DNA from: Nanobdellota archaeon
Lineage (GTDB): Archaea > Nanobdellota > Nanobdellia > Pacearchaeales > GW2011-AR1
Reading direction: 5' to 3'
Assembly (NCBI GenBank): GCA_020053375.1
Contig: JAGVNG010000008.1
Location: forward strand, 1,587 to 65,586
Length of the DNA stretch: 64,000 nucleotides
Shown here: positions 6,270 to 63,892 of the stretch, piece after piece
Numbering within the stretch: position 1 is the stretch's first letter
Layout: every line of letters begins with the position of its first letter
The notes under the pieces: model-generated
The model's input: only the letters and a program-made list of their open reading frames with translations
What the model was told of the DNA's origin: nothing
The model's database searches: none
Made by a program: the position numbers and the translations under genes

Positions 6270-6863
6270 CTAAGCATATATCTCAATTATCTTGGCATTA
6301 ACTTTATAGATTTTTATTAATTTTAAAATTTCATCCTTATTTTCAACTGGAACCATGATGCTGCTTTTTCCTAATTTTTTCCCGCCAAGCCTTTCAATCA
6401 GTCCCTTATAGTGCTTTTTGTTTGCTTTAAATCCGTAAATTTTATTTAAAAATGCTCCTCTGTTTTTTCCAACCTTGTCCCAAAAGGCTACAATGTGCTT
6501 TTTTCCGCTGATGCCGGAAGGAACATATTTACCGTATAAAACAATTCCCGTGCTTTCAATGCTTTTTTTCAGGTTTATCCACTTGTCCAATTTGCCAATT
6601 ATCAAATTTATTTTATTATCTATCCCTTTCGATTTAAAAAGCAAGGATTCTCTGCTTTTATAAAAATTTTTAAGCACTTTTTCAATTTCATTTTTTATCT
6701 TTTTGCTCTCTTTTTTAATCCCAACAAAAATATCAACATCGCTTCCTTTTGTTGCTTCATCTTTTGCTGCTGAACCGAATAATATAATTTTTTCAATGCT
6801 TTCTTTTTCTTTCAGGTTGGCAAGAAGATATGATGAAAAATAACTTGCATAAGCTTTAATCAT
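6270..6863 (-). CDS. minimal nucleotidyltransferase (MNT) domain protein, antitoxin-like partner of the upstream HEPN gene
   Basis: LFGSAAKDEATKGSDVDIFV (GS...DxD nucleotidyltransferase motif); overlaps the HEPN ORF by 8 nt. Confidence 0.7.
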   Translation of the reverse strand: MIKAYASYFSSYLLANLKEKESIEKIILFGSAAKDEATKGSDVDIFVGIKKESKKIKNEIEKVLKNFYKSRESLLFKSKGIDNKINLIIGKLDKWINLKKSIESTGIVLYGKYVPSGISGKKHIVAFWDKVGKNRGAFLNKIYGFKANKKHYKGLIERLGGKKLGKSSIMVPVENKDEILKLIKIYKVNAKIIEIYA

Positions 6864-24372: not shown

Positions 24373-24803
24373 ACCTGGAGACAATACAGGCAATTGATAG
24401 TTTCCAGAACAATAATCAATATAAAGCTAATATTTCTGAAAAATAAATGTCAAGGGATGACAAGGAAACAAGCAAAAGGTTAACAAACCCCTACATTGAA
24501 ATCAGTAGGGATATTAATGGAACAAGTCGGAGTATTGGAATTAACTCTTCCACATTCTCACTCTGTCTTGAACACATGATTCCTGCATTTAGGGATAATG
24601 GACCTATATTTCCAGAAACGGAATTGGGAAGTGAGGTCTATTCAATTTATGGAGTTGTTGGAAGAACAATTCCTGGCTTCGGTTCTCTAAATATAGGAGA
24701 ATCTCCAATTTCAAGAACTTTAATGGGTTATTTAGCAGGCAAGATATTAAGAAAAGACCTTCCAAAAGTGCACAGGCTTTTTAATCCTTCAACATAAAAT
24801 TAA

Positions 24804-25136
24804 TCAGCTCGTTTTTCTTCCTATTCTTTCACTGTGTCCGCACTTGCCGCACTTCAGCAAAATCAAATTATCTTCATCTGAATAGAATATTCCCATGTCA
24901 ATTATTTGCGCCTTGTCATAGCCACATTTTGGACATTTATTTAGATATGTAGCCATAGGATTTCCCTCTTTTGCTACTCCCCTTCCTACTTTTTTCTTTG
25001 GCTCAAGGTTTTCTCTTGTCTTTAATACTTTGAGTTCTTTTGAAAACCCGCATTTGCCGCACTCCCCGTAAAACTTTTCCCCTTCTCTTTTTGGAATAAG
25101 CATATTCCCGCATTTTGGACAGAACTTCAATGCCAT
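24804..25136 (-). CDS. second TFS/RpoM-like paralog
   Basis: FCPKCGNML N-ribbon; CPKCGYDKAQIIDMG...SDEDNLILLKCGKCGHSE C-ribbon. Confidence 0.65.
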   Translation of the reverse strand: MALKFCPKCGNMLIPKREGEKFYGECGKCGFSKELKVLKTRENLEPKKKVGRGVAKEGNPMATYLNKCPKCGYDKAQIIDMGIFYSDEDNLILLKCGKCGHSERIGRKTS

Positions 25137-25200
25137 GAAAAAGGATAATAAATAGCCCTTTAATTAATTTTTTAAACACAGGAAATCATTAATTAGCTGA

Positions 25201-25749
25201 ATGGAATACAAAAAAAAGCAGGGGGTTTTGGAAGAGGTTTCAGAAGTGAGATTTGCAATAGACCAATATGATGATATCTTCTCTGATTTTGATCCTAGAC
25301 CCGATTCGGTAAGGGGTTTTTCAGAGGACTTTCTGTCTGAAGCAGAAAGAGCAGTTATGTCAAAAAATTCAGAAAAAATAAATTTCGTAATCATGATTGA
25401 GAAAGAAAAGAGAAATTTAAAGGAAGAAACAATCGTGAAAAACAGGCTGAAGAAATATTTCGAGAAATATTACGAGATTATGAAAAAGAAAAAAGCTGGT
25501 ATAATTAAAAAAGGTGTTTATTTCATTTTATCTGGAATAATTCTAATGTTCGCCGCAACTTTTTTGTTATTTAATTTCAAACAGGAAAGTCTCTTTACAA
25601 GCTTCTTTACCATTCTTCTAGAACCAGGTGGATGGTTTTTGTTCTGGAAAGGGCTTGAACTTGTACTCTTTGAAGCAAAGGAAGAAACTCCAGATTTGCA
25701 GTTTTATGAAAGAATGGTCAATTCAAATATAAAGTTTGATTCTGCCTGA
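25201..25749 (+). CDS. membrane protein
   Basis: Two adjacent hydrophobic helices in the C-terminal half. Confidence 0.4.
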   Translation: MEYKKKQGVLEEVSEVRFAIDQYDDIFSDFDPRPDSVRGFSEDFLSEAERAVMSKNSEKINFVIMIEKEKRNLKEETIVKNRLKKYFEKYYEIMKKKKAGIIKKGVYFILSGIILMFAATFLLFNFKQESLFTSFFTILLEPGGWFLFWKGLELVLFEAKEETPDLQFYERMVNSNIKFDSA

Positions 25750-25750
25750 T

Positions 25751-25785
25751 AAATGGCCCCGATGACCTTGGGACTAAAGCGTTAC
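25751..25785. repeat. copy 1 of the tRNA-Lys 3'-end core repeat (ATGGCCCCGATG plus a conserved tail)
   Basis: aaatggccccgatgaccttgggactaaagcgttac; the core is identical to tRNA nt 26896-26907. Confidence 0.7.
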
Positions 25786-25792
25786 TTTTTAA

Positions 25793-26083
25793 TCATAAAT
25801 CGTATCTTTTCTTATAGATTTTATCATGATGATCAAAATCAACAAAGAGGATAAAATTTCTGGATATATCAACTTTAAAAACAAGAACAAAACTAGAGTC
25901 TATATGAACTGCTTTAAATTCTTTTAAATCGTGTCTTAAATTCTTATAATGCTGGATAGATGCAGAATCAGAACTAATTATCTGCTTTATTTTTTTATTT
26001 ATAATCTCAGATTTTTTTTTGTCTTTTTTTGCTAATTTCACTATTATTAACTTAAGTTCATCTGTAATAGTAAAATCAAACAT
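25793..26083 (-). CDS. RelE/ParE-family toxin
   Basis: FKAVHIDSSFVLVFKVDISRNFILFVDFDHHDKIYK matches the RelE/ParE C-terminal core. Confidence 0.55.
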   Translation of the reverse strand: MFDFTITDELKLIIVKLAKKDKKKSEIINKKIKQIISSDSASIQHYKNLRHDLKEFKAVHIDSSFVLVFKVDISRNFILFVDFDHHDKIYKKRYDL

Positions 26084-26347
26084 TTAAGCTCCAGATAGTT
26101 TGTCAAGTTCTTGTAAACTCACCTTTTTATAGCCATGTTTCTTAAAATGATTCTTGGACACAGCAATAATTTTTTTTACATATTCCTCTGTTGCCTCTCT
26201 TTCAAGAATATCATGTCCATAAAGTTCAATAAATTTATTCAGCGCCTCTGATTTATCTTTCAACCCATATTTTAATTTTATCATACCCAAAACCCTGTTT
26301 GCATAGTCATTTAATTCAACTCTTGCTGAAATAGTTTCGTTTGTCAT
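26084..26347 (-). CDS. antitoxin (ribbon-helix-helix-like), immediately upstream of the RelE gene
   Basis: ISARVELNDYANRVLGMIKLKYGL...; gene ends where the toxin starts. Confidence 0.5.
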   Translation of the reverse strand: MTNETISARVELNDYANRVLGMIKLKYGLKDKSEALNKFIELYGHDILEREATEEYVKKIIAVSKNHFKKHGYKKVSLQELDKLSGA

Positions 26348-26422
26348 GTGATTTTATGTGTATTTGGTGTGCATTTGAGATGCATCAGGGGTATTTAAGC
26401 TTTTCTTAAATCAAAAGTGCTA

Positions 26423-26456
26423 AATGGCCCCGATGATCTTTAATATAAAGTGATAC
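26423..26456. repeat. copy 2 of the tRNA-Lys 3'-end core repeat
   Basis: aaatggccccgatgatctttaatataaagtgatac. Confidence 0.7.
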
Positions 26457-26468
26457 GGTTGTGAAAAA

Positions 26469-26843
26469 TCAATTCCCGCAAGCAATGCATTCTATTTCAA
26501 TTAATGCCCCTAAAGGCAATTCCTTAACTGCTAAAGCAACTCTTGTGGGGTAGTCTTTTTTGAAGTATTTTTGATAAATTTCATTCATTTTTGAATAATT
26601 TTTCATATCTGTAAGATAAACTCTTACCTTAACTATATTGTTTAAATTCCACCCAATTTCATTAAGAATAGTACTTATTTTTCCCAAAGCATGAAGAGTT
26701 TGGTTTTCTATTCCTTCTGCCAGTTTTCCTGTTCTGGCGTCAATTCCTACCTGTCCAGAAATTTCTAGAGTATATTTATCATCATAAAGGATAGCATCTG
26801 ATATTGGTAAGGAACCTTTATTTTCAATAAACTTTTTTACCAT
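26469..26843 (-). CDS. ridA: RidA/YjgF-family protein
   Basis: VRVYLTDMKNYSKMNEIYQKYF...PTRVALAVKELPLGALIEIECIA typical RidA core. Confidence 0.75.
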   Translation of the reverse strand: MVKKFIENKGSLPISDAILYDDKYTLEISGQVGIDARTGKLAEGIENQTLHALGKISTILNEIGWNLNNIVKVRVYLTDMKNYSKMNEIYQKYFKKDYPTRVALAVKELPLGALIEIECIACGN

Positions 26844-26896
26844 TATTAATTATAGAATAAGACCTATTTATTATTTATGGTATCAAAAAGTTTGGA

Positions 26897-27014
26897 TGGC
26901 CCCGATGGGATTTGAACCCACGACACCTGGATATCTCCTCGTTTGTACAAAGAGGTACAGAACCTAAGTCCTGCGATAAGAGTCCAGTGCTCTACCAGAC
27001 TGAGCTACGGAGCC
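26897..27014 (-). tRNA. tRNA-Lys(CTT) with a 44-nt intron at the canonical 37/38 position
   Basis: GGCTCCG-TA-GCTC-AGTCTGGTA-GAGC-A-CTGGA-CTCTTA[intron]A-TCCAG-GTGTC-GTGGG-TTCAAAT-CCCAT-CGGGGCC-A; acceptor and T stems pair (one G.U each). Confidence 0.75.
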
Positions 27015-27056
27015 TTGTTACTTGGAACGGCCAAGCTCATCTGGTGCTTTAGCCTT

Positions 27057-27078
27057 TACCAGACTGAGCTACGGAGCC
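27057..27078 (-). repeat. perfect 22-nt direct repeat of the tRNA-Lys 5' end (acceptor and D-arm)
   Basis: taccagactgagctacggagcc occurs at 26993-27014 (in the tRNA) and again at 27057-27078. Confidence 0.8.
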
Positions 27079-27184
27079 GTATCTCAGTAAATGTAACTGT
27101 ATTTAAAAGATTATTCTAAAAAGGACTTAAAAAAGTTATCCCCTATGCTTTCATTACTTTCAGGCGAATGAATGAACAAATCTA

Positions 27185-27433
27185 TTAAGATTTGTGCTTA
27201 AAGAATTCAACAGCCCTAAATCTTTTCATAACCTCGGGATAATTTCCCTCTGCTAGTGTTTTTGTCTTTGTTTCATTTAACAGCCTGAAATGATATTTGC
27301 TGACAGAACCCTTAACCTTGTCCTTCCCAGGATATTTCTTCCATCTCTTTTCTTTCCTCAGTTTGTATTGCAATACCATTTTGCCTCTTTTAGTAAACAA
27401 TTTTCCGAGATAATAAAAAGATAATAAAACCAA
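27185..27433 (-). CDS. small basic hypothetical protein
   Basis: Lys/Arg-rich 60-80-aa ORF; start ambiguous (overlaps the upstream ORF). Confidence 0.3.
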   Translation of the reverse strand: MVLLSFYYLGKLFTKRGKMVLQYKLRKEKRWKKYPGKDKVKGSVSKYHFRLLNETKTKTLAEGNYPEVMKRFRAVEFFKHKS

Positions 27434-28134: not shown

Positions 28135-28227
28135 TTTAAATCTTTTGGAAGATAGTTCCTAAAAAGTTTATTGAGACTTTATCGATTTAAATCTTTTGGA
28201 AGATAGTTCCTAAAAAGTTTATTGAGA
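28135..28227. repeat. two perfect 42-nt tandem copies (period 51 nt) in the divergent promoter region
   Basis: tttaaatcttttggaagatagttcctaaaaagtttattgaga at 28135-28176 and 28186-28227. Confidence 0.85.
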
Positions 28228-28276
28228 ATTTTTTGCTTGTCAGAATATTTATTAATAGACGTATCTATAAAATTTT

Positions 28277-32300: not shown

Positions 32301-33554
32301 TTATTGGCTAAGCCTCTCATTTATTTTCTTTAAATTAAATAAGATTATCTTTTGCAAATTTGAAAGAAGTTTTGCATCTTCCCTGACTCTAGCTGCTTTG
32401 GTGTAGCCAAGATATTCATCCAATAATCCAAAAGGGATATCTAAAATAGGAACATTCTTTGACTGGAGTAAGTGAAAGGTAACTAATCTTGTGGTCCTGC
32501 TGTTTCCATCCTCAAATGGGTGAATATGCTGAAATTCATTATGAAAATAAACTGCGAAATTCAATATCTCTTTAAGAGACACTTTTTCTTTTTTAATGAA
32601 CTCGTTGTATTTTTTAATTAATTCCTCAAGTTCTCTTTCAATATTTTTAGCCTTTGTAATCTTAAAATTAGGATTTCCTGAAATATGGACTTTAATCTTT
32701 CTTATTTTCCCTGCAATATTAAGGTTATGTTGCATTGCCAAAAAATGATAATCTAAAATAGTTTGTAAGGTTAAAGGATTCTTATCGCGGCTATCTTTTA
32801 ACATTTGTAAAAGAGCCTTTTGATAATTTTTTACTTCATCTATATCTTCACTTTTCAGATTAGCGGGAATTATCTTATCTTTTAATATTCTTTTTGTTTC
32901 ATTGAGAGTTATAGGATTTCCTTCTAAAGCCAAACTATGATGAATAAAAGAAACCTCAAATTCACTGATAATCTGTTGATATCTGGCTTCATTTTCTCTT
33001 TTTAGCCTTCTAAACTTAGTGAGCTCTTTCTCAATATCTTCTAGGTAATTTGTTATATCCTCTGTAATAACTTTATGCCTGTATCCAAAGTAAAATAGGA
33101 GATTATTTAATAAAATATTATAAAAAACTTTAACTTTTAGGGGTTTTTCTGAAATTATAAGAAGCAATCCATTTTTGTATAAAATATCAATATATTTTCT
33201 AAAAGTAACTGAATGCAAATTAACATCGCGGGGGGTTATCTCTTTTTTCTGTAAAGCTCTGCTAACAAATTGAGCAAGCCCAGGATTTAATAGTTCATTA
33301 TAATTTATATCATTTCGCAAACAATGATAAATTATTTCATAAAGAAGATTTGAATTTTCTGTCTTTTTTGCCTGAAATCCGTAGCTAGTTTTTGCCAATA
33401 GCCCTTCTTGCATTAATTCTGTAAGAAGGCGATGAATATTGTCATATTCCCTTTCATTCTTCTTGAATTTTTTAGCCACTTCAATGGGTTTTATAGCATG
33501 TCTGTTTGTGTAAACAGCTTCAAACACATCATATTTAGTTACCATAAAATGCAT
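32301..33554 (-). CDS. Fic-family protein with C-terminal winged-helix-like region
   Basis: HPFEDGNSRTTR approximates the Fic motif HPFx[DE]GNGRxxR (second Gly replaced by Ser). Confidence 0.55.
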   Translation of the reverse strand: MHFMVTKYDVFEAVYTNRHAIKPIEVAKKFKKNEREYDNIHRLLTELMQEGLLAKTSYGFQAKKTENSNLLYEIIYHCLRNDINYNELLNPGLAQFVSRALQKKEITPRDVNLHSVTFRKYIDILYKNGLLLIISEKPLKVKVFYNILLNNLLFYFGYRHKVITEDITNYLEDIEKELTKFRRLKRENEARYQQIISEFEVSFIHHSLALEGNPITLNETKRILKDKIIPANLKSEDIDEVKNYQKALLQMLKDSRDKNPLTLQTILDYHFLAMQHNLNIAGKIRKIKVHISGNPNFKITKAKNIERELEELIKKYNEFIKKEKVSLKEILNFAVYFHNEFQHIHPFEDGNSRTTRLVTFHLLQSKNVPILDIPFGLLDEYLGYTKAARVREDAKLLSNLQKIILFNLKKINERLSQ

Positions 33555-39685: not shown

Positions 39686-40246
39686 TTGTTAAATAATAAA
39701 AATAAAAGGGTATTAAATTTATATCCCTCATTTATAATGATAAAGAAAAAATTATTGATTATTTTGTTAGTTATCGTCTCTCTAATATTTCTTCTGTTTA
39801 TCATAAGATTAATCAGCCCAAAAGAAATAGACGATGTAACGCCAGGGATATTCTGCGAAACAAAATATCTGGAAAAGAGCGATATCTTATGGGTAATTCC
39901 TGATTTCGACAACACTGCGATTTCAGAAAACGCATCATGGTGTAAGCACATATTAAGCCTGAATAAGACTCTTGGAATGCATGGTATCATGCACGCATAT
40001 GATGAATTCCTTGTTGACAGAAACAATGAATATCTTTACAGGGGAATAAAAATATTTGAAGATTGTTTTGGCTTCAGACCAGAAATGTTCAAGCCGCCCC
40101 AGCTGAAGATATCCGATAGCAACACGAAGCTGATAGAAGGCAATAATCTTAAATTAAAAATGAATTTTAATCAGTTAGTGCATAAGGTTTATCACTGCAA
40201 TGATGAACCTGAATTTGTTAAAAATAAGGTTATTGATTGGGTTTAA
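39686..40246 (+). CDS. hypothetical protein with N-terminal TM helix
   Basis: 186-aa ORF. Confidence 0.35.
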   Translation: MLNNKNKRVLNLYPSFIMIKKKLLIILLVIVSLIFLLFIIRLISPKEIDDVTPGIFCETKYLEKSDILWVIPDFDNTAISENASWCKHILSLNKTLGMHGIMHAYDEFLVDRNNEYLYRGIKIFEDCFGFRPEMFKPPQLKISDSNTKLIEGNNLKLKMNFNQLVHKVYHCNDEPEFVKNKVIDWV

Positions 40247-41739
40247 ATCCTAAACCTCAATATCGCGCCTATGCCAGAAAGCTTTGCAAACTGGTCTCCT
40301 TCTGTCGTGTCCGTCGAAACAATCTCAAAATTGGCAGATGTGCTTTCAGCCAGTTTCTTGAATTCCTTCATCTTCTTCTTGTCATAACTCTTGGAGATTA
40401 TGATGGTATCCACCGCACCATATCCCACTGCTTTTCTTATTTCATCCTCATTATAGATTGACATTTCTCCCCTATTTCCGAGCCTTTCAAAGAATTTTTC
40501 AAGAAGTTTTTTCTCTTTTACTATTTCCTGACTGGCGAGTATATCCTGCGATCTTTCAACTAATTCCTTCAGTCCCGATTCATCTGAATCGCCTATGTCT
40601 TTTCTGCCTATTATTTTTTCCCTTAACTTTGTGACGAGATATTCCCCGTCAATAAACTCGTCTTTTGTTGGAATAGGTCCTCCTATAAGTATGCCTTTCA
40701 GCTTAGGCATTTCAAAAAAAACCTTTTTCATTTCATCTGCTATCCGTTTGTAAAATTCTTTTGTGAGCCCCTCGGTTATTCTGTGGAATCTCTGGCTTGA
40801 ATTATGGACAACAAAACCATTGGCGATAAAATTTCCTTGCTCGGTTTCTATGTCAATGAGATTAAAATCACCGCTTCGTTCCTTGATATTAATAATCTTT
40901 AATTCTAAAATAGCATGATTATTTGAACAAATTAAAATATCTCCTACTTTCAAATTTCGCGCAATAACTTCTTCAATATTAAGTTTATTTTTTTTAAAGA
41001 ATGTATGGTCAAAAGAGCATATAATTGATTCTTCATCCTCAACAATAATCTCTAAAACTTTATCTTTAATATTTTCCCATTTATTTTTTATTCTGGTAAA
41101 AACTATTTTATTAGATTCAAAGTTTAAGCCTCTTATTTTATCATTTATTTTTAAATCAATTATATCTTTATTTTTATTATTTAAACTAACCCGGCTATCA
41201 GGACTCAAGCATTGTCCACCTGCCCTCACCTTGCTGGGAACCCCTGATGTCATCTTTTGGATTACTTCTATTCTTTTTCCCTCCAGCAATCCTATTGTGG
41301 CTTCCTTCCTGTCCATCACAAGAAGTCCAAAAACCTCTTTTACTGCGAGCATTTCCCGTAGCGGGTCAAGTATGAATTCCTTGTCACACCTGTACATCCT
41401 AACTTTAAGGGGTGTTGGGGGCTCAATTGCCCATATCTGCAAGTCTTCCTGGCTTTCTGTCTTGGAAACATTTCCGCAAAATATTGCAAACCCTGTTTCA
41501 GGAGTTTTTTTGTAGTCTTTCAAAAACCTTGTAATCTTGTCAAGGGCATTTGTGACATCTTTTCTTGTTGAAGTTGATTTTATGTTCTTGGCCGTTGATT
41601 TTTCCGCTTCAAGCTGGTCTGCAACAGTGTAGATGTTCTGCCCCTCGGGGATATACACCGTGATAAGTTCTGTTGCCCTTGCCCTGTGTTCGCCAAGCTC
41701 TTCCACCAGCTCCTCAAGTTCTTCTTTATTTATTTTCAT
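40243..41739 (-). CDS. prf1: peptide chain release factor aRF1 interrupted by a mini-intein directly after the GGQ motif
   Basis: Exteins join to ...SKVRAGGQ|SSQRFHRITEGL... (eRF1 GGQ loop); N-terminal domain with NIKS-like NIKSTSTRKD. Confidence 0.8.
   Translation of the reverse strand: MKINKEELEELVEELGEHRARATELITVYIPEGQNIYTVADQLEAEKSTAKNIKSTSTRKDVTNALDKITRFLKDYKKTPETGFAIFCGNVSKTESQEDLQIWAIEPPTPLKVRMYRCDKEFILDPLREMLAVKEVFGLLVMDRKEATIGLLEGKRIEVIQKMTSGVPSKVRAGGQCLSPDSRVSLNNKNKDIIDLKINDKIRGLNFESNKIVFTRIKNKWENIKDKVLEIIVEDEESIICSFDHTFFKKNKLNIEEVIARNLKVGDILICSNNHAILELKIINIKERSGDFNLIDIETEQGNFIANGFVVHNSSQRFHRITEGLTKEFYKRIADEMKKVFFEMPKLKGILIGGPIPTKDEFIDGEYLVTKLREKIIGRKDIGDSDESGLKELVERSQDILASQEIVKEKKLLEKFFERLGNRGEMSIYNEDEIRKAVGYGAVDTIIISKSYDKKKMKEFKKLAESTSANFEIVSTDTTEGDQFAKLSGIGAILRFRI
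40801..41211 (-). mobile_element. mini-intein (137 aa, no endonuclease domain) inserted after GGQ of aRF1
   Basis: Begins with Cys (CLSPDSRVSL), ends ...NGFVVHN followed by Ser; excision restores the canonical GGQSSQRF. Confidence 0.7.
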
Positions 41740-48208: not shown

Positions 48209-48850
48209 ATGGAAATTCCACTAAACTTGAAACTGAAGAAAAAATCTCAGAAAGAGATAGCGTATGCTCAAGATATTTTAATAGGGGAACTTTATAATTT
48301 TTTTCCAAATGCTGTAATTCACGGAGGAACAGCGATATGGCGTTGTTATAATGGAAATAGATTCTCTGAGGATATTGATGTTTATATGCCTAGAGAAATG
48401 AATAAAATAGATAATTTTTTTAAGAATTTGAAAAAAAAGGGTTTTAGAATAATTAAAAGAAGGATAAAAGAAAATTCCCTTTATTCAGAAATTATGATTA
48501 ACAACTCATCGGTAAGATTTGAAGCAACCTTTCAGGTTAAAAAACCCTCTTTAAAAAAGTATGAAACATCAGAAAGTTTTTTCATTAATGTATTCACCTT
48601 ATCTGTGAAAGAATTGATTATGGAAAAAGTCAATGCCTATTTAAACAGGAGAAAAATACGGGATTTGTATGATATTTTCTTTTTATTAAACCATGCTGAG
48701 AGAGAGAGAGATGTAAAAGACTATTTAAATAGGCTGGTTAAAAATTTCGAGAAACCCGTAGATGAGGGGAATTTGGCAACTATTATTATTTCTGGAGCTG
48801 TTCCTGATTCTAAACAGCTTCTGGAGGCTATAAAGGGATGGGTAAAATAA
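48209..48850 (+). CDS. AbiEii/AbiGii-family nucleotidyltransferase toxin
   Basis: HGGTAIWRCYNGNRFSEDIDVYMP (GGTAL...R.SEDiD signature of DUF1814/AbiEii). Confidence 0.65.
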   Translation: MEIPLNLKLKKKSQKEIAYAQDILIGELYNFFPNAVIHGGTAIWRCYNGNRFSEDIDVYMPREMNKIDNFFKNLKKKGFRIIKRRIKENSLYSEIMINNSSVRFEATFQVKKPSLKKYETSESFFINVFTLSVKELIMEKVNAYLNRRKIRDLYDIFFLLNHAERERDVKDYLNRLVKNFEKPVDEGNLATIIISGAVPDSKQLLEAIKGWVK

Positions 48851-55825: not shown

Positions 55826-56491
55826 ATGCAGATTCCTTCTAACATATCTACAGAACTGGCAGAAGAAGTAGGTTGGCACATTGGTGATGGAAGCATGAAT
55901 TTTTATAAAAACAGAGGAAAACTAAAAGGTCTCTATCAATTAAGGGGTCATATTGAAGATGATAAAGAGCATTATGAAAAAAGAATTAGACCTCTATTTG
56001 AAAAATTATTTGGTGTCAAATTGAGTATAAGAGACATGCCTTCTACAAGAGTTGTTGGATTTCAAATATGGAACAATGATTTAATCAACTTCAAGAAAAA
56101 TCTTGGACTTCCATTAGGATATAAATATAAAGTAGAAATTCCAACTGCATTCTTATTAAAGGGTAGTTTAAAAAGAGCCGTCATTAAAGGAATTTTTGAT
56201 ACAGATGGGGGAATTTATCTGCAAAGAAAAAATAATAAATTATATCCCCGGATATACATAACCACTATTTCCCTTGTATTATCTGAACAATTATTAAGAA
56301 TATTTGATGAATTCAGTCTTCGTGCTACAAGATATTCTCAATTATATAATAAAAAATTTAATAGAAAAAGGAGTTATATTGTAACAATTAGGGGAGTAGA
56401 TATGTTCCATAAATTTATGAAAGAGATTTCACCAAAAAATCCAAAGCATATTAAGAAATATCTGGATTTTCTCAACTCGCAAAACCTATAA
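55826..56491 (+). CDS. free-standing single-chain LAGLIDADG homing endonuclease
   Basis: EVGWHIGDGSMN and IKGIFDTDGGIY LAGLIDADG motifs. Confidence 0.65.
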   Translation: MQIPSNISTELAEEVGWHIGDGSMNFYKNRGKLKGLYQLRGHIEDDKEHYEKRIRPLFEKLFGVKLSIRDMPSTRVVGFQIWNNDLINFKKNLGLPLGYKYKVEIPTAFLLKGSLKRAVIKGIFDTDGGIYLQRKNNKLYPRIYITTISLVLSEQLLRIFDEFSLRATRYSQLYNKKFNRKRSYIVTIRGVDMFHKFMKEISPKNPKHIKKYLDFLNSQNL

Positions 56492-56517
56492 ATAGGTAAA
56501 TTTCTCTAAATACTGAT

Positions 56518-56628
56518 GAGCCTGTAGTTCAGCCTGGTTAGAACGTCGCTCTGATATAATGCTCAAAGAAGCAGTTCCAAGAGAATTTAGAAAGGCGAAG
56601 GTCCACAGTTCAAATCTGTGCAGGCTCA
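56518..56628 (+). tRNA. tRNA-Ile(GAT) with a ~36-nt intron at the canonical position
   Basis: GAGCCTG-TA-GTTC-AGCCTGGTTA-GAAC-G-TCGCT-CTGATA[intron]A-GGCGA-AGGTC-CACAG-TTCAAAT-CTGTG-CAGGCTC-A. Confidence 0.7.
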
Positions 56629-60231: not shown

Positions 60232-61959
60232 ATGAAGTATTCAAAGCTCTGTGAGTTATACGACAATATTTCAGGAACACCAAAGCGTCTTGAAAAGACA
60301 GACATACTTGCGAAATTCCTGAAAGAGCTTGCGGATTCGGACAAGGAAGCATTATATCTTCTTCTGGGAGAAATTTATGCCGATTATGATGAAAAGAGAA
60401 TTGGCATAAGCAATCAGCTAGTGATTAAGGCAATTGCAAAATCAACAGGGACTCCCAATGAAAAAGTGGTTCATGAATGGAAGGTAATCGGGGACCTTGG
60501 AAAAGTTGCTGAAAAACTTGTTTCTAAGAAAAAGCAATCAACTCTTTCATCGCATTCCGAAGTTACTGTCCAAAAGGTTCTTGAGAATTTGAGAAAACTG
60601 CCTGACTTAGAAGGTAAGGGAACAGTGGAAAAGAAAATCTCTCTGATAACCGAACTCCTGTCGTCTGCCTCGCCAAAAGAGGCATTGTACATAATTAGAA
60701 CACTTCTTTCTGACTTGAGAATAGGAATAAAGGAAAGCACCATCAGAGACGCGCTCGCGAAAGCATTTTTCAAGGAAAGTAAAAAAGACGCAATAAGAGA
60801 AATACAGGATGCCATAGACAAATCAAATGACATAGTTGAAGTTTTTGAGATGACTAAAAAAGGAAAGCTAAAGGACTTAAAGAAAGTGCACCTTGAAATT
60901 GGGAAACCCATCAAAGTCATGCTTGCCCAAAAAGCAAAAAACATCAAAGAAGCTTTTGAGGCTGTTGGAAAGCCATGCGCAATTGAATACAAGTATGACG
61001 GATTCAGAATGCTGATTCACAAGAAGGGCAATGAGGTAATCCTATTCACCAGAAGACTGGAAAATGTAACAAAGCAGTTTCCAGAGGTTATTGATTATGT
61101 AAAAAAATATGCCCGGGGAGATTCATTTATTCTTGATTCAGAGGCAGTTGGCTTTAACAGGCAAACAAAACAATACACTTCTTTCCAGAACATAAGCCAG
61201 AGAATAAGAAGAAAATATGATATAGAAAAACTGCAAGACGAGCTTCCAGTAGAGGTAAATGTTTTTGACATTCTTTATTATAATGGTGAGGCTCTTCTTG
61301 ACAAGCCTTTTAAGGAAAGAACAGAATTAATTAGGAAGATAGTGAAAAGTTCTCCTTACAAAATAATTCATGCAAAGCAGATAATAACCTCTGATGAAAA
61401 AAAAGCTAATGAGTTCTACAAGCAGGCATTAAAAGATAACCAAGAGGGAGTTATGTTCAAGAATCTCACTGCTATTTACCAGCCAGGAAAAAGAGTTGGA
61501 CATATGCTTAAAATAAAACCCGAAGGCAGAGACTTGGATTTGGTTATTACAGGAGCAGAATATGGAACAGGAAAGCGTTCAGGATGGTTTTCAAGTTTCA
61601 TCTTGTCATGCAAGGATGAAAAAACAGGAAAATATCTTGAGATAGGAAAAATGGGAACAGGGGTGAAGGAAAAATCCACAGCGCAGTCTGGGATAGGAAT
61701 ATCATTTAATGAACTTACTGAAAAACTCAAGCCATTAATCACAAAAGAGTCTGGAAAGACGGTTGAAATAAAACCAAAAATAGTTGTTGCAATAACATAT
61801 CAGGAAATCCAGCCTTCTCCAAATTACAATTCAGGCTTTGCATTGAGATTCCCCCGGTTCACTGCATTGCGTCCAGATAAAAGTCCTAGTGACGCCAATA
61901 CATTAGATAACGTCAAGAAGGATTTTGGAAGGCAGAAAAGAAACTGGCGATATGGCTAA
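60232..61959 (+). CDS. lig: ATP-dependent DNA ligase
   Basis: KYDGFRM (KxDG adenylation motif), EGVMFK, DLVITGAEYG. Confidence 0.85.
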   Translation: MKYSKLCELYDNISGTPKRLEKTDILAKFLKELADSDKEALYLLLGEIYADYDEKRIGISNQLVIKAIAKSTGTPNEKVVHEWKVIGDLGKVAEKLVSKKKQSTLSSHSEVTVQKVLENLRKLPDLEGKGTVEKKISLITELLSSASPKEALYIIRTLLSDLRIGIKESTIRDALAKAFFKESKKDAIREIQDAIDKSNDIVEVFEMTKKGKLKDLKKVHLEIGKPIKVMLAQKAKNIKEAFEAVGKPCAIEYKYDGFRMLIHKKGNEVILFTRRLENVTKQFPEVIDYVKKYARGDSFILDSEAVGFNRQTKQYTSFQNISQRIRRKYDIEKLQDELPVEVNVFDILYYNGEALLDKPFKERTELIRKIVKSSPYKIIHAKQIITSDEKKANEFYKQALKDNQEGVMFKNLTAIYQPGKRVGHMLKIKPEGRDLDLVITGAEYGTGKRSGWFSSFILSCKDEKTGKYLEIGKMGTGVKEKSTAQSGIGISFNELTEKLKPLITKESGKTVEIKPKIVVAITYQEIQPSPNYNSGFALRFPRFTALRPDKSPSDANTLDNVKKDFGRQKRNWRYG

Positions 61960-62485
61960 TATTAAACCTGTCAAAATAATCCACAAAGGTTCCATCTTCG
62001 TCTAATATATTTCCTTTATGTTTGATAACCCCTTCAAAATAACGCTTATCTTTGAGCCATCCATACATTAATTCGTCTCCAGCATTCTTCGGAACAAGGG
62101 GTACGTCTCTTTCATCAATCCATAAAGGTGTTCCTTCATTGCCTTCCCCCTTTAGTTCGCCACTATAATTTTTGGCACTAAAAACATATACCAAAAAATC
62201 CGTAGGATTTTTCCAATTGGGAAAAATTCTTTCTTTATTGTCAAATAAAATAACTCCTCTTAGTTTAGGCTTAATCAAAATCAAACCTGTTTCCTCATTT
62301 GTTTCTCTTATTGCCGATTCCAATCTTCCATCAAGGTTATCCAAACCTTTTTCGTTACTATCTAATTTTCCACCAGGCAAGGCATACAACCCTGAATTAG
62401 GGTCATTTTCCCTTACTTTCTTTTTCATCATCAAAACTTTGTCTTCAGCAGAGAGGTAGGAAATTGTTGCATATTTCATTTCCAC
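61913..62485 (-). CDS. NUDIX hydrolase
   Basis: GGKLDSNEKGLDNLDGRLESAIRETNEETGL (Nudix box GX5EX7REUXEEXGU). Confidence 0.75.
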   Translation of the reverse strand: MEMKYATISYLSAEDKVLMMKKKVRENDPNSGLYALPGGKLDSNEKGLDNLDGRLESAIRETNEETGLILIKPKLRGVILFDNKERIFPNWKNPTDFLVYVFSAKNYSGELKGEGNEGTPLWIDERDVPLVPKNAGDELMYGWLKDKRYFEGVIKHKGNILDEDGTFVDYFDRFNISHIASFFSAFQNPS

Positions 62486-62500
62486 AAATAAAAACAGGGC

Positions 62501-63520
62501 TTAATAAAAATTTGTATACTTCTGTTCAACTTTTTTCCTTAATTTAAAAGCATTAGCCCACTTTGCATAAGCGTTCCATCCTTGGAGGATTTCCGCCATT
62601 TTACTGCCTGATATTTTTCCTCGATTAAATTTTCCCATTTTTCTTTCAATATTTTTTATATTCTTTTTTCTTAATAATTTATAATAATAGAAATTCCTGA
62701 AACCGACAAAATCAATTCCTCTTGATAATAAGATAATTCTTGACTTATCTGGGTGAAGTTCCAGTTTTAATTTTTCTTCTAAGAATTGACTTATTCGTTC
62801 TTTCAAATTTTCTAATTGTTCTTTTGAATTGTGCAAAATAACAAAATCATCAACATATCTTATGTAATGCTTAGCTTTAAGCAAGTGTTTGACAAAATAG
62901 TCAAGTTCATTAAGATAAACATTTGCAAAAAATTGGGATGTTAAATTCCCTAAGGGCATTCCCTTTCCAGAGGGATTGTCTGAAACATTATTATTCAAAA
63001 TTCTTTTAATAAGCCAGATTACTCCTTCATCTTTTATCCTTCTTTTTATTATATTAAGAAGGATTTTATGATTAACTTCCTGAAAATAATGCTTTATGTC
63101 TGCTTTAAGGCAATATCCAGAAGAAGCATGGTTTTTGGTAACTTTTCTTCTAAATCTTTCAAATCGCTTCAAAGCAAATAAATTTCCTCTGCCTTTTCTG
63201 TTTGCGCATGAATCATAGATGAATGTCCTATCAAAAATAGGCTCAATAACCCTTACCAATGCATGATGAACAACCCTATCTTTAAAATTAGATTTTGAGA
63301 TTTTTCTCGTTTTTGGGTCTCTCAAAATGAATGTTATCAGAGATTTTGGTTTATAATAAAAGTATTTCAGTTCATAGTGCAGTGCTTTTAAATTATCCCT
63401 CAAATTTTTTTCAAATTCAATGACGTAATCTTTTTTTGTTTTGCTCTTTCTTGCCTTTTGCCATGCAAGAATTAAATTTCTCATTGAATAAATTTTAGGA
63501 TAAAGATTATCAGTTTCCAT
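62501..63520 (-). CDS. diversity-generating retroelement (DGR) reverse transcriptase
   Basis: RT motifs: RKISKSNFKDRVVHHAL (1/2), CLKADIKHYF (3), GMPLGNLTSQFFANVYLNELD (4; LGNLTSQ is the DGR-type [ILV]GxxxSQ rather than QGxxxSP), YIRYVDDFVIL (5, YxDD), LELHPDKSRII (6/7), IDFVGF; compact 339 aa; TR immediately upstream. Confidence 0.85.
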   Translation of the reverse strand: METDNLYPKIYSMRNLILAWQKARKSKTKKDYVIEFEKNLRDNLKALHYELKYFYYKPKSLITFILRDPKTRKISKSNFKDRVVHHALVRVIEPIFDRTFIYDSCANRKGRGNLFALKRFERFRRKVTKNHASSGYCLKADIKHYFQEVNHKILLNIIKRRIKDEGVIWLIKRILNNNVSDNPSGKGMPLGNLTSQFFANVYLNELDYFVKHLLKAKHYIRYVDDFVILHNSKEQLENLKERISQFLEEKLKLELHPDKSRIILLSRGIDFVGFRNFYYYKLLRKKNIKNIERKMGKFNRGKISGSKMAEILQGWNAYAKWANAFKLRKKVEQKYTNFY

Positions 63521-63550
63521 ATTAGCATCAAAGTCCTGAAAATATGGGCT

Positions 63551-63676
63551 ATTCCGAGGTCAGAATTCCTGTTGGAAGGATTCCTGTTGCAGTTGAGGTT
63601 AGCCCTGTCAGAATTGGCATTGAACCTGGCAACTTTTAGCCAATTTACCAATTCAAAAACTTTAAAAGTTTTCACC
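63551..63676 (-). repeat. DGR template repeat (TR). Only 63551-63627 can be aligned inside the window; the upstream boundary is inferred
   Basis: 63554-63627 aligns to VR 63927-64000 with 14 mismatches, all at TR adenines on the minus strand; the in-frame translation is Asn(AAC/AAT)-rich (FNANSDRANLNCNRNPSNRN). Confidence 0.8.
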
Positions 63677-63698
63677 GAATCTGTCCGCGGACAGATTC
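63677..63698. promoter_or_regulatory. perfect 22-nt palindrome GAATCTGTCCGCGGACAGATTC between the target-gene stop and the TR
   Basis: Self-complementary over its full length; sits at the likely 5' boundary of the TR transcript. Confidence 0.4.
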
Positions 63699-63892
63699 TG
63701 TATTTTATGACTTAAAATAAATCTAAATAATGTTCTAGTAAATTGACGTGTAGTCCATATTTATCTCTCTTGCTTCAGCATTTTTCAATTGCTCATTTTA
63801 AAAGATGCTTAAAAGACACTTTCAGGACAAACCATCAAATGAATGGATGTTTAAAAATTTTGTGTTTGTTCTTATAAATGTTTCCAGCGAGC

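Follow-up and report, generated by a model that had tools for sequence, protein, structure and literature searches.

Which process could have placed two small gene units, bounded by copies of the 3' end of a tRNA gene, directly beside that gene when no integrase is encoded there? The question is raised by the tRNA-Lys(CUU) locus in a 64-kb stretch of archaeal DNA (contig JAGVNG010000008.1; the whole stretch is called the window in the following). A RidA gene and a toxin-antitoxin (TA) pair follow the tRNA gene, and a partial copy of its 5' end precedes it. We consider it fairly probable that the three copies of the 12-nt string ATGGCCCCGATG are the junctions of a two-cassette array at the 3' end of tRNA-Lys(CUU), which lacks an integrase of its own, is integron-like and is mobilised in trans. 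The 5' duplicate would be a separate feature, a leader removed by RNase P.

The window is AT-rich and archaeal. Its close homologues and syntenic contigs belong to DPANN archaea of the Pacearchaeota/Woesearchaeota type, and exact look-ups of the window proteins matched no record. The tRNA-Lys(CUU) gene is located on the minus strand at 26897-27014 (58.2 bits with the Rfam tRNA model) and consists of exon 1 (26977-27014), an intron (26933-26976) and exon 2 (26897-26932). The 44-nt intron occupies the canonical 37/38 position with a bulge-helix-bulge (BHB) motif of 4 bp in the central, 5 bp in the outer and 3 bp in the inner helix, and intron-less tRNA-Lys orthologues align to 26896-26932 plus 26977-27014 of the window. 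Because of this intron the gene is missed by ARAGORN in default mode, which reports no tRNA in the window; Rfam finds two, both containing an intron.

ATGGCCCCGATG occurs in three exact copies in the 64 kb, all on the plus strand, at 25753, 26424 and 26896. Shuffled sequences contained 0.09 matches on average and never reached three copies. The three direct repeats pointed out by the initial annotation are real, with the middle copy at 26424 rather than at the 26425 given there. So is the additional tail shared by the two distal copies: they have 39 nt in common at 77% overall identity, and 13 of the 21 positions beyond the core match. No repeats of the ends of the second tRNA gene (tRNA-Ile, 56518-56628) were found in the window. 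Read on the tRNA strand, the repeated core is CATCGGGGCCAT and comprises the last three bases of the T-stem, the 3' acceptor strand, the discriminator A and one T. From the tRNA onwards, the order on the minus strand is RidA, core 2, a protein of 87 aa, the toxin, core 3 and the end of a convergent gene for a protein of 182 aa. The cassette boundaries of all related arrays lie at the core sequence, and core copy 1 (26896-26907, minus strand), as judged from the sequence, is the attB/attI-like junction between the tRNA and the first cassette.

Empty sites and gene cassettes 3' of the tRNA-Lys gene

Related loci (identified by L numbers) were collected by an exact match to the 31-nt 3' exon of tRNA-Lys, with 120 metagenomic loci among the matches listed, most of them on short contigs. 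Two genome loci (L011 and L018) and the genomic contexts of cassette proteins were added. L011 and L018 were the only useful loci among the matches listed in a scan of genome contigs with ATGGCCCCGATGRNNTT, a pattern that proved too loose, the listed matches being mostly from G+C-rich bacteria. Many of the related loci share the flanking genes of the window. In L229 the orthologue of the convergent 182-aa gene (25201-25749, plus strand; no family; chromosomal side of the array) lies directly 3' of the tRNA, and the positions corresponding to 25764 and 26897 of the window are adjacent. Hence, the insertion in the window amounts to 1,143 bp, the sum of a 472-bp and a 671-bp cassette. The sequence past core 3 is orthologous to that directly 3' of the tRNA in L229. 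In L225 the orthologue of the 182-aa gene likewise adjoins the tRNA 3' end, and both L225 and L162 are empty sites. A 273-kb contig from a single-cell genome with the same synteny (L243) contains the TA cassette only, and L203, the locus with the most similar flanks (80-83%), contains neither cassette. This empty-site comparison, which the initial annotation had proposed, and the combinatorial aquifer arrays described below bear out its view that the 3' repeats mark junctions of insertions into the tRNA gene, and that RidA and the TA pair are separate cassettes, added successively without an integrase.

An additional core 3' of the tRNA is present in 28 of the 120 listed loci, 17 of which hold a total of 21 gene cassettes; in AT-rich DNA such a G+C-rich 11-mer is not expected by chance. 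By a stricter count, limited to listed loci whose contigs extend 800 nt or more downstream, a gene cassette is found in 11 of 82, at CUU as well as UUU genes. These cassette frequencies are rough, since the loci were selected by exact match among the matches listed and most contigs are short. The 21 cassettes measure 0.33-1.9 kb, carry one or two genes each and are nearly always co-oriented with the tRNA. Their cargo in the related arrays includes YafQ/RelE pairs, other RelE/ParE-like and HicAB pairs, RidA, a methyltransferase, DJ-1/PfpI and HhH-GPD proteins, radical SAM with TrmB, DUF218 and MazG-like proteins and a solute symporter.

Both cassettes of the window are read from the minus strand. 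Cassette 1 (26425-26896, 472 bp) has a TATA-like ATAAATAATAAATA at 26865-26878, followed by the RidA gene (26469-26843) and by the end site with the core (26424-26468). RidA/YjgF is identified by a full-length match to PF01042 (E=3.5e-30; 104.9 bits, cutoff 27.3). The cassette is missing from L229, L225, L162 and L243; a RidA protein of 85% identity with the same cassette start is found in another array (L259). Its end site, ACAACCGTATCACTTTATATTAAAGAT followed by CATCGGGGCCAT, is of type 2, aligns without gaps to 21 other cassette ends and also occurs as a type in L139, L126, L155 and L252.

Cassette 2 (25754-26424, 671 bp) has a TATA-like GCTTAAATA at 26392-26400, a putative antitoxin of 87 aa (26084-26347), a YafQ/RelE-like toxin of 96 aa (25793-26083) and the end site with the core (25753-25797). 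The latter is of type 1, TTAAAAAGTAACGCTTTAGTCCCAAGGT followed by CATCGGGGCCAT, and forms the distal junction with the chromosome. The toxin matches the YafQ_toxin model weakly (17.8 bits, cutoff 30), as it does structures in the PDB (HP0892, E=0.16). However, its homologues in Pacearchaeota and Nanoarchaeota (n=1,111) are named RelE, YafQ or ParE in their source records, some with PF05016. Of the RelE/ribbon-helix-helix pair originally annotated, the toxin is RelE-like by the names of its homologues; the ribbon-helix-helix label is unverified for the 87-aa protein, which has no family match. Relatives of cassette 2 with 76-84% nucleotide identity occupy different array positions in L136, L237, L235, L175, L164, L146 and L238. 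The G+C content of the cassettes is 0.26-0.31, compared with 0.33-0.38 in the flanks.

The end site is common to cassettes with unrelated cargo. Twenty-two cassette ends align without gaps at a mean column identity of 71%, with the consensus TTTTAAnnAAAAnGTAACACTTTAGTTnAAAGGT (~32 nt) followed by CATCGGGGCCAT, ~44 nt in total; in motif form it reads GTAWCACTTTA-N9-11-CATCGGGGCCA. The site exists in two subtypes, both represented once in the window. Type 1 retains a T-loop-like GTTCCAA and, consequently, resembles a diverged copy of the 3' half of the tRNA. In the 64 kb GTAWCRCTTTA is confined to the two cassette ends; the case that the initial annotation had named as refuting its view, terminator motifs distributed over the genome, is thus not what is seen. 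An attC-like hairpin was also considered for the end site and rejected: two candidate stems show no real covariation, and the sites of the window fold with z = -0.6 and -0.5 relative to shuffles. At their opposite end, 15-35 nt past the core, the cassettes carry a BRE/TATA-like AAAGATTTAAATA (BRE, transcription factor B recognition element), to which GCTTAAATA and ATAAATAATAAATA correspond in the window. Each cassette presumably carries its own archaeal BRE/TATA promoter.

Metagenomes from the Hainich aquifer illustrate how the cassettes are combined and suggest that they are still moving. A toxin of identical protein sequence (P0023) occurs there in at least three array arrangements. In L252, an array of at least three cassettes with cores at 47, 707, 1409 and 1812, the tRNA is followed by the TA cassette, a DUF218 cassette and a MazG-like cassette. 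In L251 and L257 a symporter cassette (cassX) precedes the TA and DUF218 cassettes, and in L253, L256 and L258 it precedes the TA cassette, which is then followed by the chromosomal flank. All junctions in these arrays are exactly at CATCGGGGCCAT. Compared with other copies of this cassette, that in L253 has a longer tRNA-like stretch (AAATCC) 5' of the core. In different environments the TA cassette adjoins the tRNA (L235, L238 and L243) or takes the second position (window and L164).

Two further rearrangements were observed around tRNA-Lys. Gene-less units of 72-99 nt lie just past the gene in L143, L147, L171, L175, L176, L180, L193 and L217. They open with an inverted T-loop (GGGATTTGAAC), close with CAAATCC and the core, and contain with the T-arm a 36-bp quasi-palindrome centred on GGCC; in L171 and L176 they are in tandem. 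On their opposite strand no tRNA was detected up to E=10 or at the gathering score. Furthermore, in L165, L161, L221, L203, L143, L131 and L239 the tRNA-Lys gene has the opposite orientation between the same conserved flanks (82-aa open reading frame and TFS) when compared with 24800-27400 of the window. The tRNA of L165 is 99% identical to that of the window including the intron, but is flipped and has neither 5' insert nor cassettes.

Proposed recombination and the search for a recombinase

An integrase-less array mobilised in trans could arise as follows. The cassettes would travel in circular form, with conservative site-specific recombination between one core and another. A circle composed of end site, core and start would recombine with the core at the tRNA end, whereby the new cassette would enter beside the tRNA and the tRNA end would be regenerated. 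Such a crossover has to be placed within the core of 12 bp, since it leaves the tRNA undamaged and does not separate a cassette from its specific bases just left of the core. Of several cassettes, the one proximal to the tRNA would be the newest, and RidA would therefore have arrived later than the TA pair. The recombinase would be supplied in trans, either from elsewhere in the genome or from another element. Since a conserved end site is common to unrelated cargo, trans-mobilised insertions fit the data better than the old scars that the initial annotation had offered as the other option.

Several points weigh against this proposal. The 64-kb window and ~130 related loci yielded neither a tyrosine or serine recombinase nor a transposase or Cas1. 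No virus or plasmid with the site was found and no circular cassette junction was seen. By inspection, the core and its surroundings have no dyad symmetry of the dif/lox/FRT type on which simple tyrosine recombinases act. Some of the shuffling could be produced by short-homology recombination, for which no dedicated enzyme is needed. As to the 5' insert, the only guide to where transcription begins and how the transcript is processed is the position of the promoter.

The searches for a recombinase agree with the initial annotation that no integrase is present at the locus. Motif regular expressions applied to the window and the related loci detected no recombinase, nor did phmmer with XerA and resolvase seeds against 1,383 open reading frames of the window and all loci. 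Pfam models gave no recombinase, transposase or Cas1 among ~45 window proteins. The cassettes of the window encode RidA and the TA pair only, none of them a recombinase, and none of the related cassettes carries an integrase. Viral contigs were scanned with the tRNA 3' exon, the cassette end, the type-1 site, the 19-nt T-loop-plus-core and the toxin protein. Nothing relevant was obtained, and two matches, to G+C-rich phages, are due to chance. The sole protein of an integrase family is encoded by a XerA-like gene in L144. It was rejected as a nearby recombinase, being 6 kb away from the tRNA, on the upstream side and thus opposite to the side of cassette insertion, and present on one contig only. 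A conserved neighbour of 82 aa (27185-27433), a candidate accessory factor, has no match in Pfam, PADLOC or the PDB.

That no recombinase was found would be expected if none were needed. After uptake of DNA, homologous or short-homology recombination of the host could act on the 12-bp core and the ~44-nt junctions. Junctions of cassettes of the same type are indeed near-identical over 45-90 nt, covering end site, core and promoter, and the longer AAATCC stretch in L253 would fit variable crossover points. On the side of the tRNA, however, identity extends over 11-18 nt only, and the breakpoints are precise. Moreover, conservation of a specific 32-nt site over unrelated cargo points to recognition by a protein. 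In our view, exchange without any dedicated recombinase is rather unlikely.

The cassettes could also be decayed remnants of larger, integrase-carrying proviruses or plasmids in tRNA-Lys, nearly all of which was lost by deletion. Partial tRNA repeats and tandem accretion are classic for islands integrating into tRNA genes, and loss of the integrase after integration has been documented in archaea (PMC8371274). The T-loop-like GTTCCAA beside the core is as expected for an old attP copy of the 3' half of the tRNA. Yet independent deletions are unlikely to have left 21 cassettes of 0.33-1.9 kb with unrelated cargo but a common end site and, in many cases, a promoter-bearing start. Identical cassettes at different array positions within one population are equally difficult to reconcile with decay, and fragments of an integrase were seen neither in nor beside any array. 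We therefore give this origin only a small chance and retain the array of trans-mobilised cassettes as the preferred explanation.

The duplicated 5' end of the tRNA-Lys gene

On the other side of the gene, 27057-27078 is identical to 26993-27014 over 22 nt (25 nt with one mismatch), separated by a spacer of 42 nt. GGCTCCGTAGCTC occurs twice, compared with 0.00 expected occurrences; the perfect 22-nt duplicate reported earlier at this distance beyond the gene is thus real. All its elements are read from the minus strand. The distal copy (27057-27078) corresponds to nt 1-22 of the tRNA, namely the 5' acceptor strand and the 5' part of the D-arm. The 42-nt insert (27015-27056) contains ACCAGATGAGC, which is complementary to GCTCAGTCTGGT in the D-arm. 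Together, distal copy and insert are predicted to fold into a hairpin of -21.5 kcal/mol (z = -2.4). The promoter region of the distal copy (27079-27108) comprises a TATA box, TTTTAAATA, at 27100-27108 and the leader CTGAGATAC at 27079-27087.

Read from the sequence, the TATA box is located at -30 to -22 relative to G1 of the distal copy. This distance is the same as in the tRNA-Ile gene of the window and in single-copy tRNA-Lys genes (L229, L143 and L217). No TATA box was found 5' of the proximal copy. From this placement of the promoter it follows that the 64 extra nucleotides are probably transcribed. They probably represent a hairpin-forming 5' leader that is removed by RNase P, the involvement of which we infer since a gene for its p30 subunit is present in a related Woesearchaeota contig. 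Both in the window (27079-27087) and in L229, L203, L143, L201, L150 and L223 the native leader reads CTGAG(A/C)TAC and is reverse-complementary to nt 7-15 of the tRNA (GTAGCTCAG). Leader and tRNA form a 9-6-9 palindrome with the 5' acceptor strand, GGCTCC, at its centre.

In L011, L018 and 25 of the 91 listed metagenomic loci the tRNA 5' end is present two or three times, at spacings of 56-148 nt. Six families of inserts can be distinguished, of which A (AAAGCTAAAGCTAACCAGATGAGCTTAGCC...) is that of the window. The repeat that precedes the insert comprises nt 1-22/26 in families A, B and C and nt 1-12/16 in families D, E and F. The inserts stack up to three deep, for example F then A in L150 and D then B in L235, with tandem units in L134 and L193. 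As a member of such recurrent families of short inserts, the 5' duplicate is not a one-off integrase scar. No genes were found in the 5' inserts, and neither far-upstream nor inverted extra tRNA 5' ends, a sign of gene-carrying 5' cassettes, were detected. Units as small as 56-75 bp hardly seem able to travel in circular form. Inserts of families A-C contain a segment complementary to the D-arm, which in family C covaries with the D-loop of the host gene. At a variable position of the D-loop, the distal copies of L223 and L235 do not match the proximal ones, which is more easily explained by import of the sequence than by duplication on the spot.

Alternatively, as also considered earlier, the 64 nt between the distal copy and nt 23 could be a second, non-canonical intron in the D-loop, with the distal copy by the promoter as exon 1. 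The promoter is at the canonical distance from the distal and not from the proximal copy, the arrangement recurs in 25 of 91 listed loci, and in family C the pairing covaries (GGTTA/AAACC in L193 versus GGCTA/AAGCC in L205 and L188). In addition, DPANN splicing endonucleases are reported to tolerate relaxed motifs (PMC5829648). Nevertheless, neither a BHB nor a half-BHB motif was found at any of 23 offsets in 30 loci. A central helix is obtained solely from trivially self-complementary tetramers, and the outer helix has 0-1 bp at all offsets, in contrast to 5 bp in the canonical intron used as control (4, 5 and 3 bp). Furthermore, the inserts stack as described, and they are lacking in close relatives, for example in L165 despite a tRNA that is 99% identical including its intron. 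A second intron was rejected on these grounds and is highly improbable; a leader removed by RNase P remains our preferred explanation.

Finally, that the repeated 3' motif is an RNA-level signal, either a terminator or a tRNA-like 3' processing site, and not a recombination junction is hardly conceivable: the site does lie just past stop codons, with T-runs after it, and resembles a hairpin with the 3' acceptor strand, but it is restricted to the two cassette ends in 64 kb, its predicted fold is no better than that of shuffles (z = -0.5 and -0.6) and lacks covariation, and insertion and deletion boundaries between genomes coincide with it. The motif may, however, serve in both roles.

Known systems, neighbouring features and significance

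Of the known systems, integrons, including archaeal integrons and CALINs (clusters of attC sites lacking integron-integrases; Ghaly et al. 2022, PMC9668308), share the features by which the array described here is integron-like: small, mostly single-gene, co-oriented cassettes that each end in a recombination site, prominent TA cargo, cassettes without a recombinase of their own and an order that varies within populations. A co-oriented array of small cassettes in variable order was indeed found (21 cassettes, 17 loci), whereas an adjacent intI, attC structure and promoterless cassettes were not. In contrast to integrons, docking takes place at the 3' end of a tRNA and not at attI beside intI, and IntI was not detected. 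Sequence is what is conserved in the cassette site (~44 nt, of which a 12-bp core is in common with the tRNA), while attC is structured and variable in sequence with GTTRRRY, a motif that was not found at any cassette boundary. The cassettes have putative promoters of their own, whereas integron cassettes are promoterless and depend on a common Pc promoter. The paper on archaeal integrons does not mention tRNA (PMC9668308).

An intact tRNA at one end and displaced partial tRNA repeats marking insertions are also typical of tRNA-integrating islands and of the tycheposon islands of Prochlorococcus (Hackl et al., 10.1101/2020.12.28.424599), in which newer elements likewise push older ones outward. 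The intact tRNA and the direct repeat of its 3' part are present here, but an integrase on the element is not. Those islands carry tyrosine recombinases, often replication genes, and cargo of up to ~10 kb, whereas the units described here measure 0.33-1.9 kb, have no mobility genes and use one common end site.

Elements that rely on a recombinase encoded elsewhere are known from other settings: pseudo-SCC (staphylococcal cassette chromosome) elements at rlmH depend on CcrAB, and IMEX (integrative mobile elements exploiting Xer) at dif depend on XerCD. They resemble the present array in that non-autonomous units bounded by short direct repeats are stacked in tandem at a conserved gene's 3' end, but differ in domain of life, target and site. 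In comparison with casposons and miniature inverted-repeat transposable elements, direct repeats are present with an identity of 11-19 nt, and weak terminal inverted repeats (TGATAC/GTATCA) can be recognised. The distal 5' copy differs from the proximal one in L223 and L235, and no Cas1 or transposase was seen.

Disrupted archaeal tRNA genes, comprising BHB introns, the split tRNA-Lys of Nanoarchaeum equitans and the tRNA-Thr fragment model (Sugahara et al. 2012, PMC3293823), are similar in having a 5' tRNA fragment with its own promoter upstream of the gene. Integration of mobile elements has been proposed as a source of tRNA fragments and introns (PMC3293823). However, the fragment here lies at a distance of 56-148 nt (64 nt in the window) from the proximal copy, six insert families exist, and neither a BHB motif nor a recombinase gene is found between the copies. 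A split gene of the Nanoarchaeum equitans type does not fit either: of a T-arm the extra 3' cores show only the T-loop-like GTTCCAA, they have no anticodon half, and the 5' insert pairs with the D-arm of its own copy and not with a 3' half. The literature searched contains no description of tRNA-Lys cassette arrays in DPANN archaea.

Other features of the window were recorded besides the array. A stand-alone reverse transcriptase of 339 aa (RVT_1, 62501-63520), with generic reverse transcriptase and UG/DRT-type models as best PADLOC matches, belongs to a module on the minus strand (61913-63779), in which an Rfam RT-16 RNA (63631-63779, 62.2 bits) precedes and a NUDIX protein (61913-62485) follows it. 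This module may be retron-like or of a defence type in a DPANN archaeon. The eRF1 gene (40243-41739, minus strand, 498 aa) has an intein-like insert with an Intein_splicing match at residues 191-271, and a free-standing LAGLIDADG_3 protein (221 aa) ends 27 nt 5' of tRNA-Ile(GAU), which has an intron of ~37 nt (55826-56628, plus strand). A 51-nt tandem duplication with 92% identity (28135-28236) lies between a winged-helix and a metallophosphoesterase gene. Genes of an addiction or defence type encode an AbiEii-type nucleotidyltransferase toxin (48209-48850, plus strand), a 417-aa Fic/DOC protein (PADLOC PDC-S04/SoFic-like; 32301-33554, minus strand) and an MNT-type nucleotidyltransferase (6270-6863, minus strand).

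DPANN archaea have tiny genomes with few recognised mobile elements, and their exchange of accessory genes for TA systems, stress response and repair is poorly understood. As a tentative extension, the Pacearchaeota/Woesearchaeota group could possess a gene-capture platform of its own, in which the 3' end of tRNA-Lys docks promoter-bearing mini-cassettes with a ~44-nt site, moved by a recombinase that is possibly host-encoded; the same machinery may leave 5' inserts, 3' palindromic units and tRNA flips. Integron-finding tools would overlook such arrays, since they search for IntI and attC hairpins. The combination of tRNA-Lys, the CATCGGGGCCAT core and the GTAWCACTTTA site defines a search image, with which phyletic profiling could be directed at the recombinase. 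The 5' inserts would represent a new kind of tRNA gene disruption, with a bearing on the origin of tRNA fragments and introns. If our explanation is correct, a tRNA-anchored array with a common recombination site and without its own integrase would constitute an integron-like route of gene flow in DPANN archaea.

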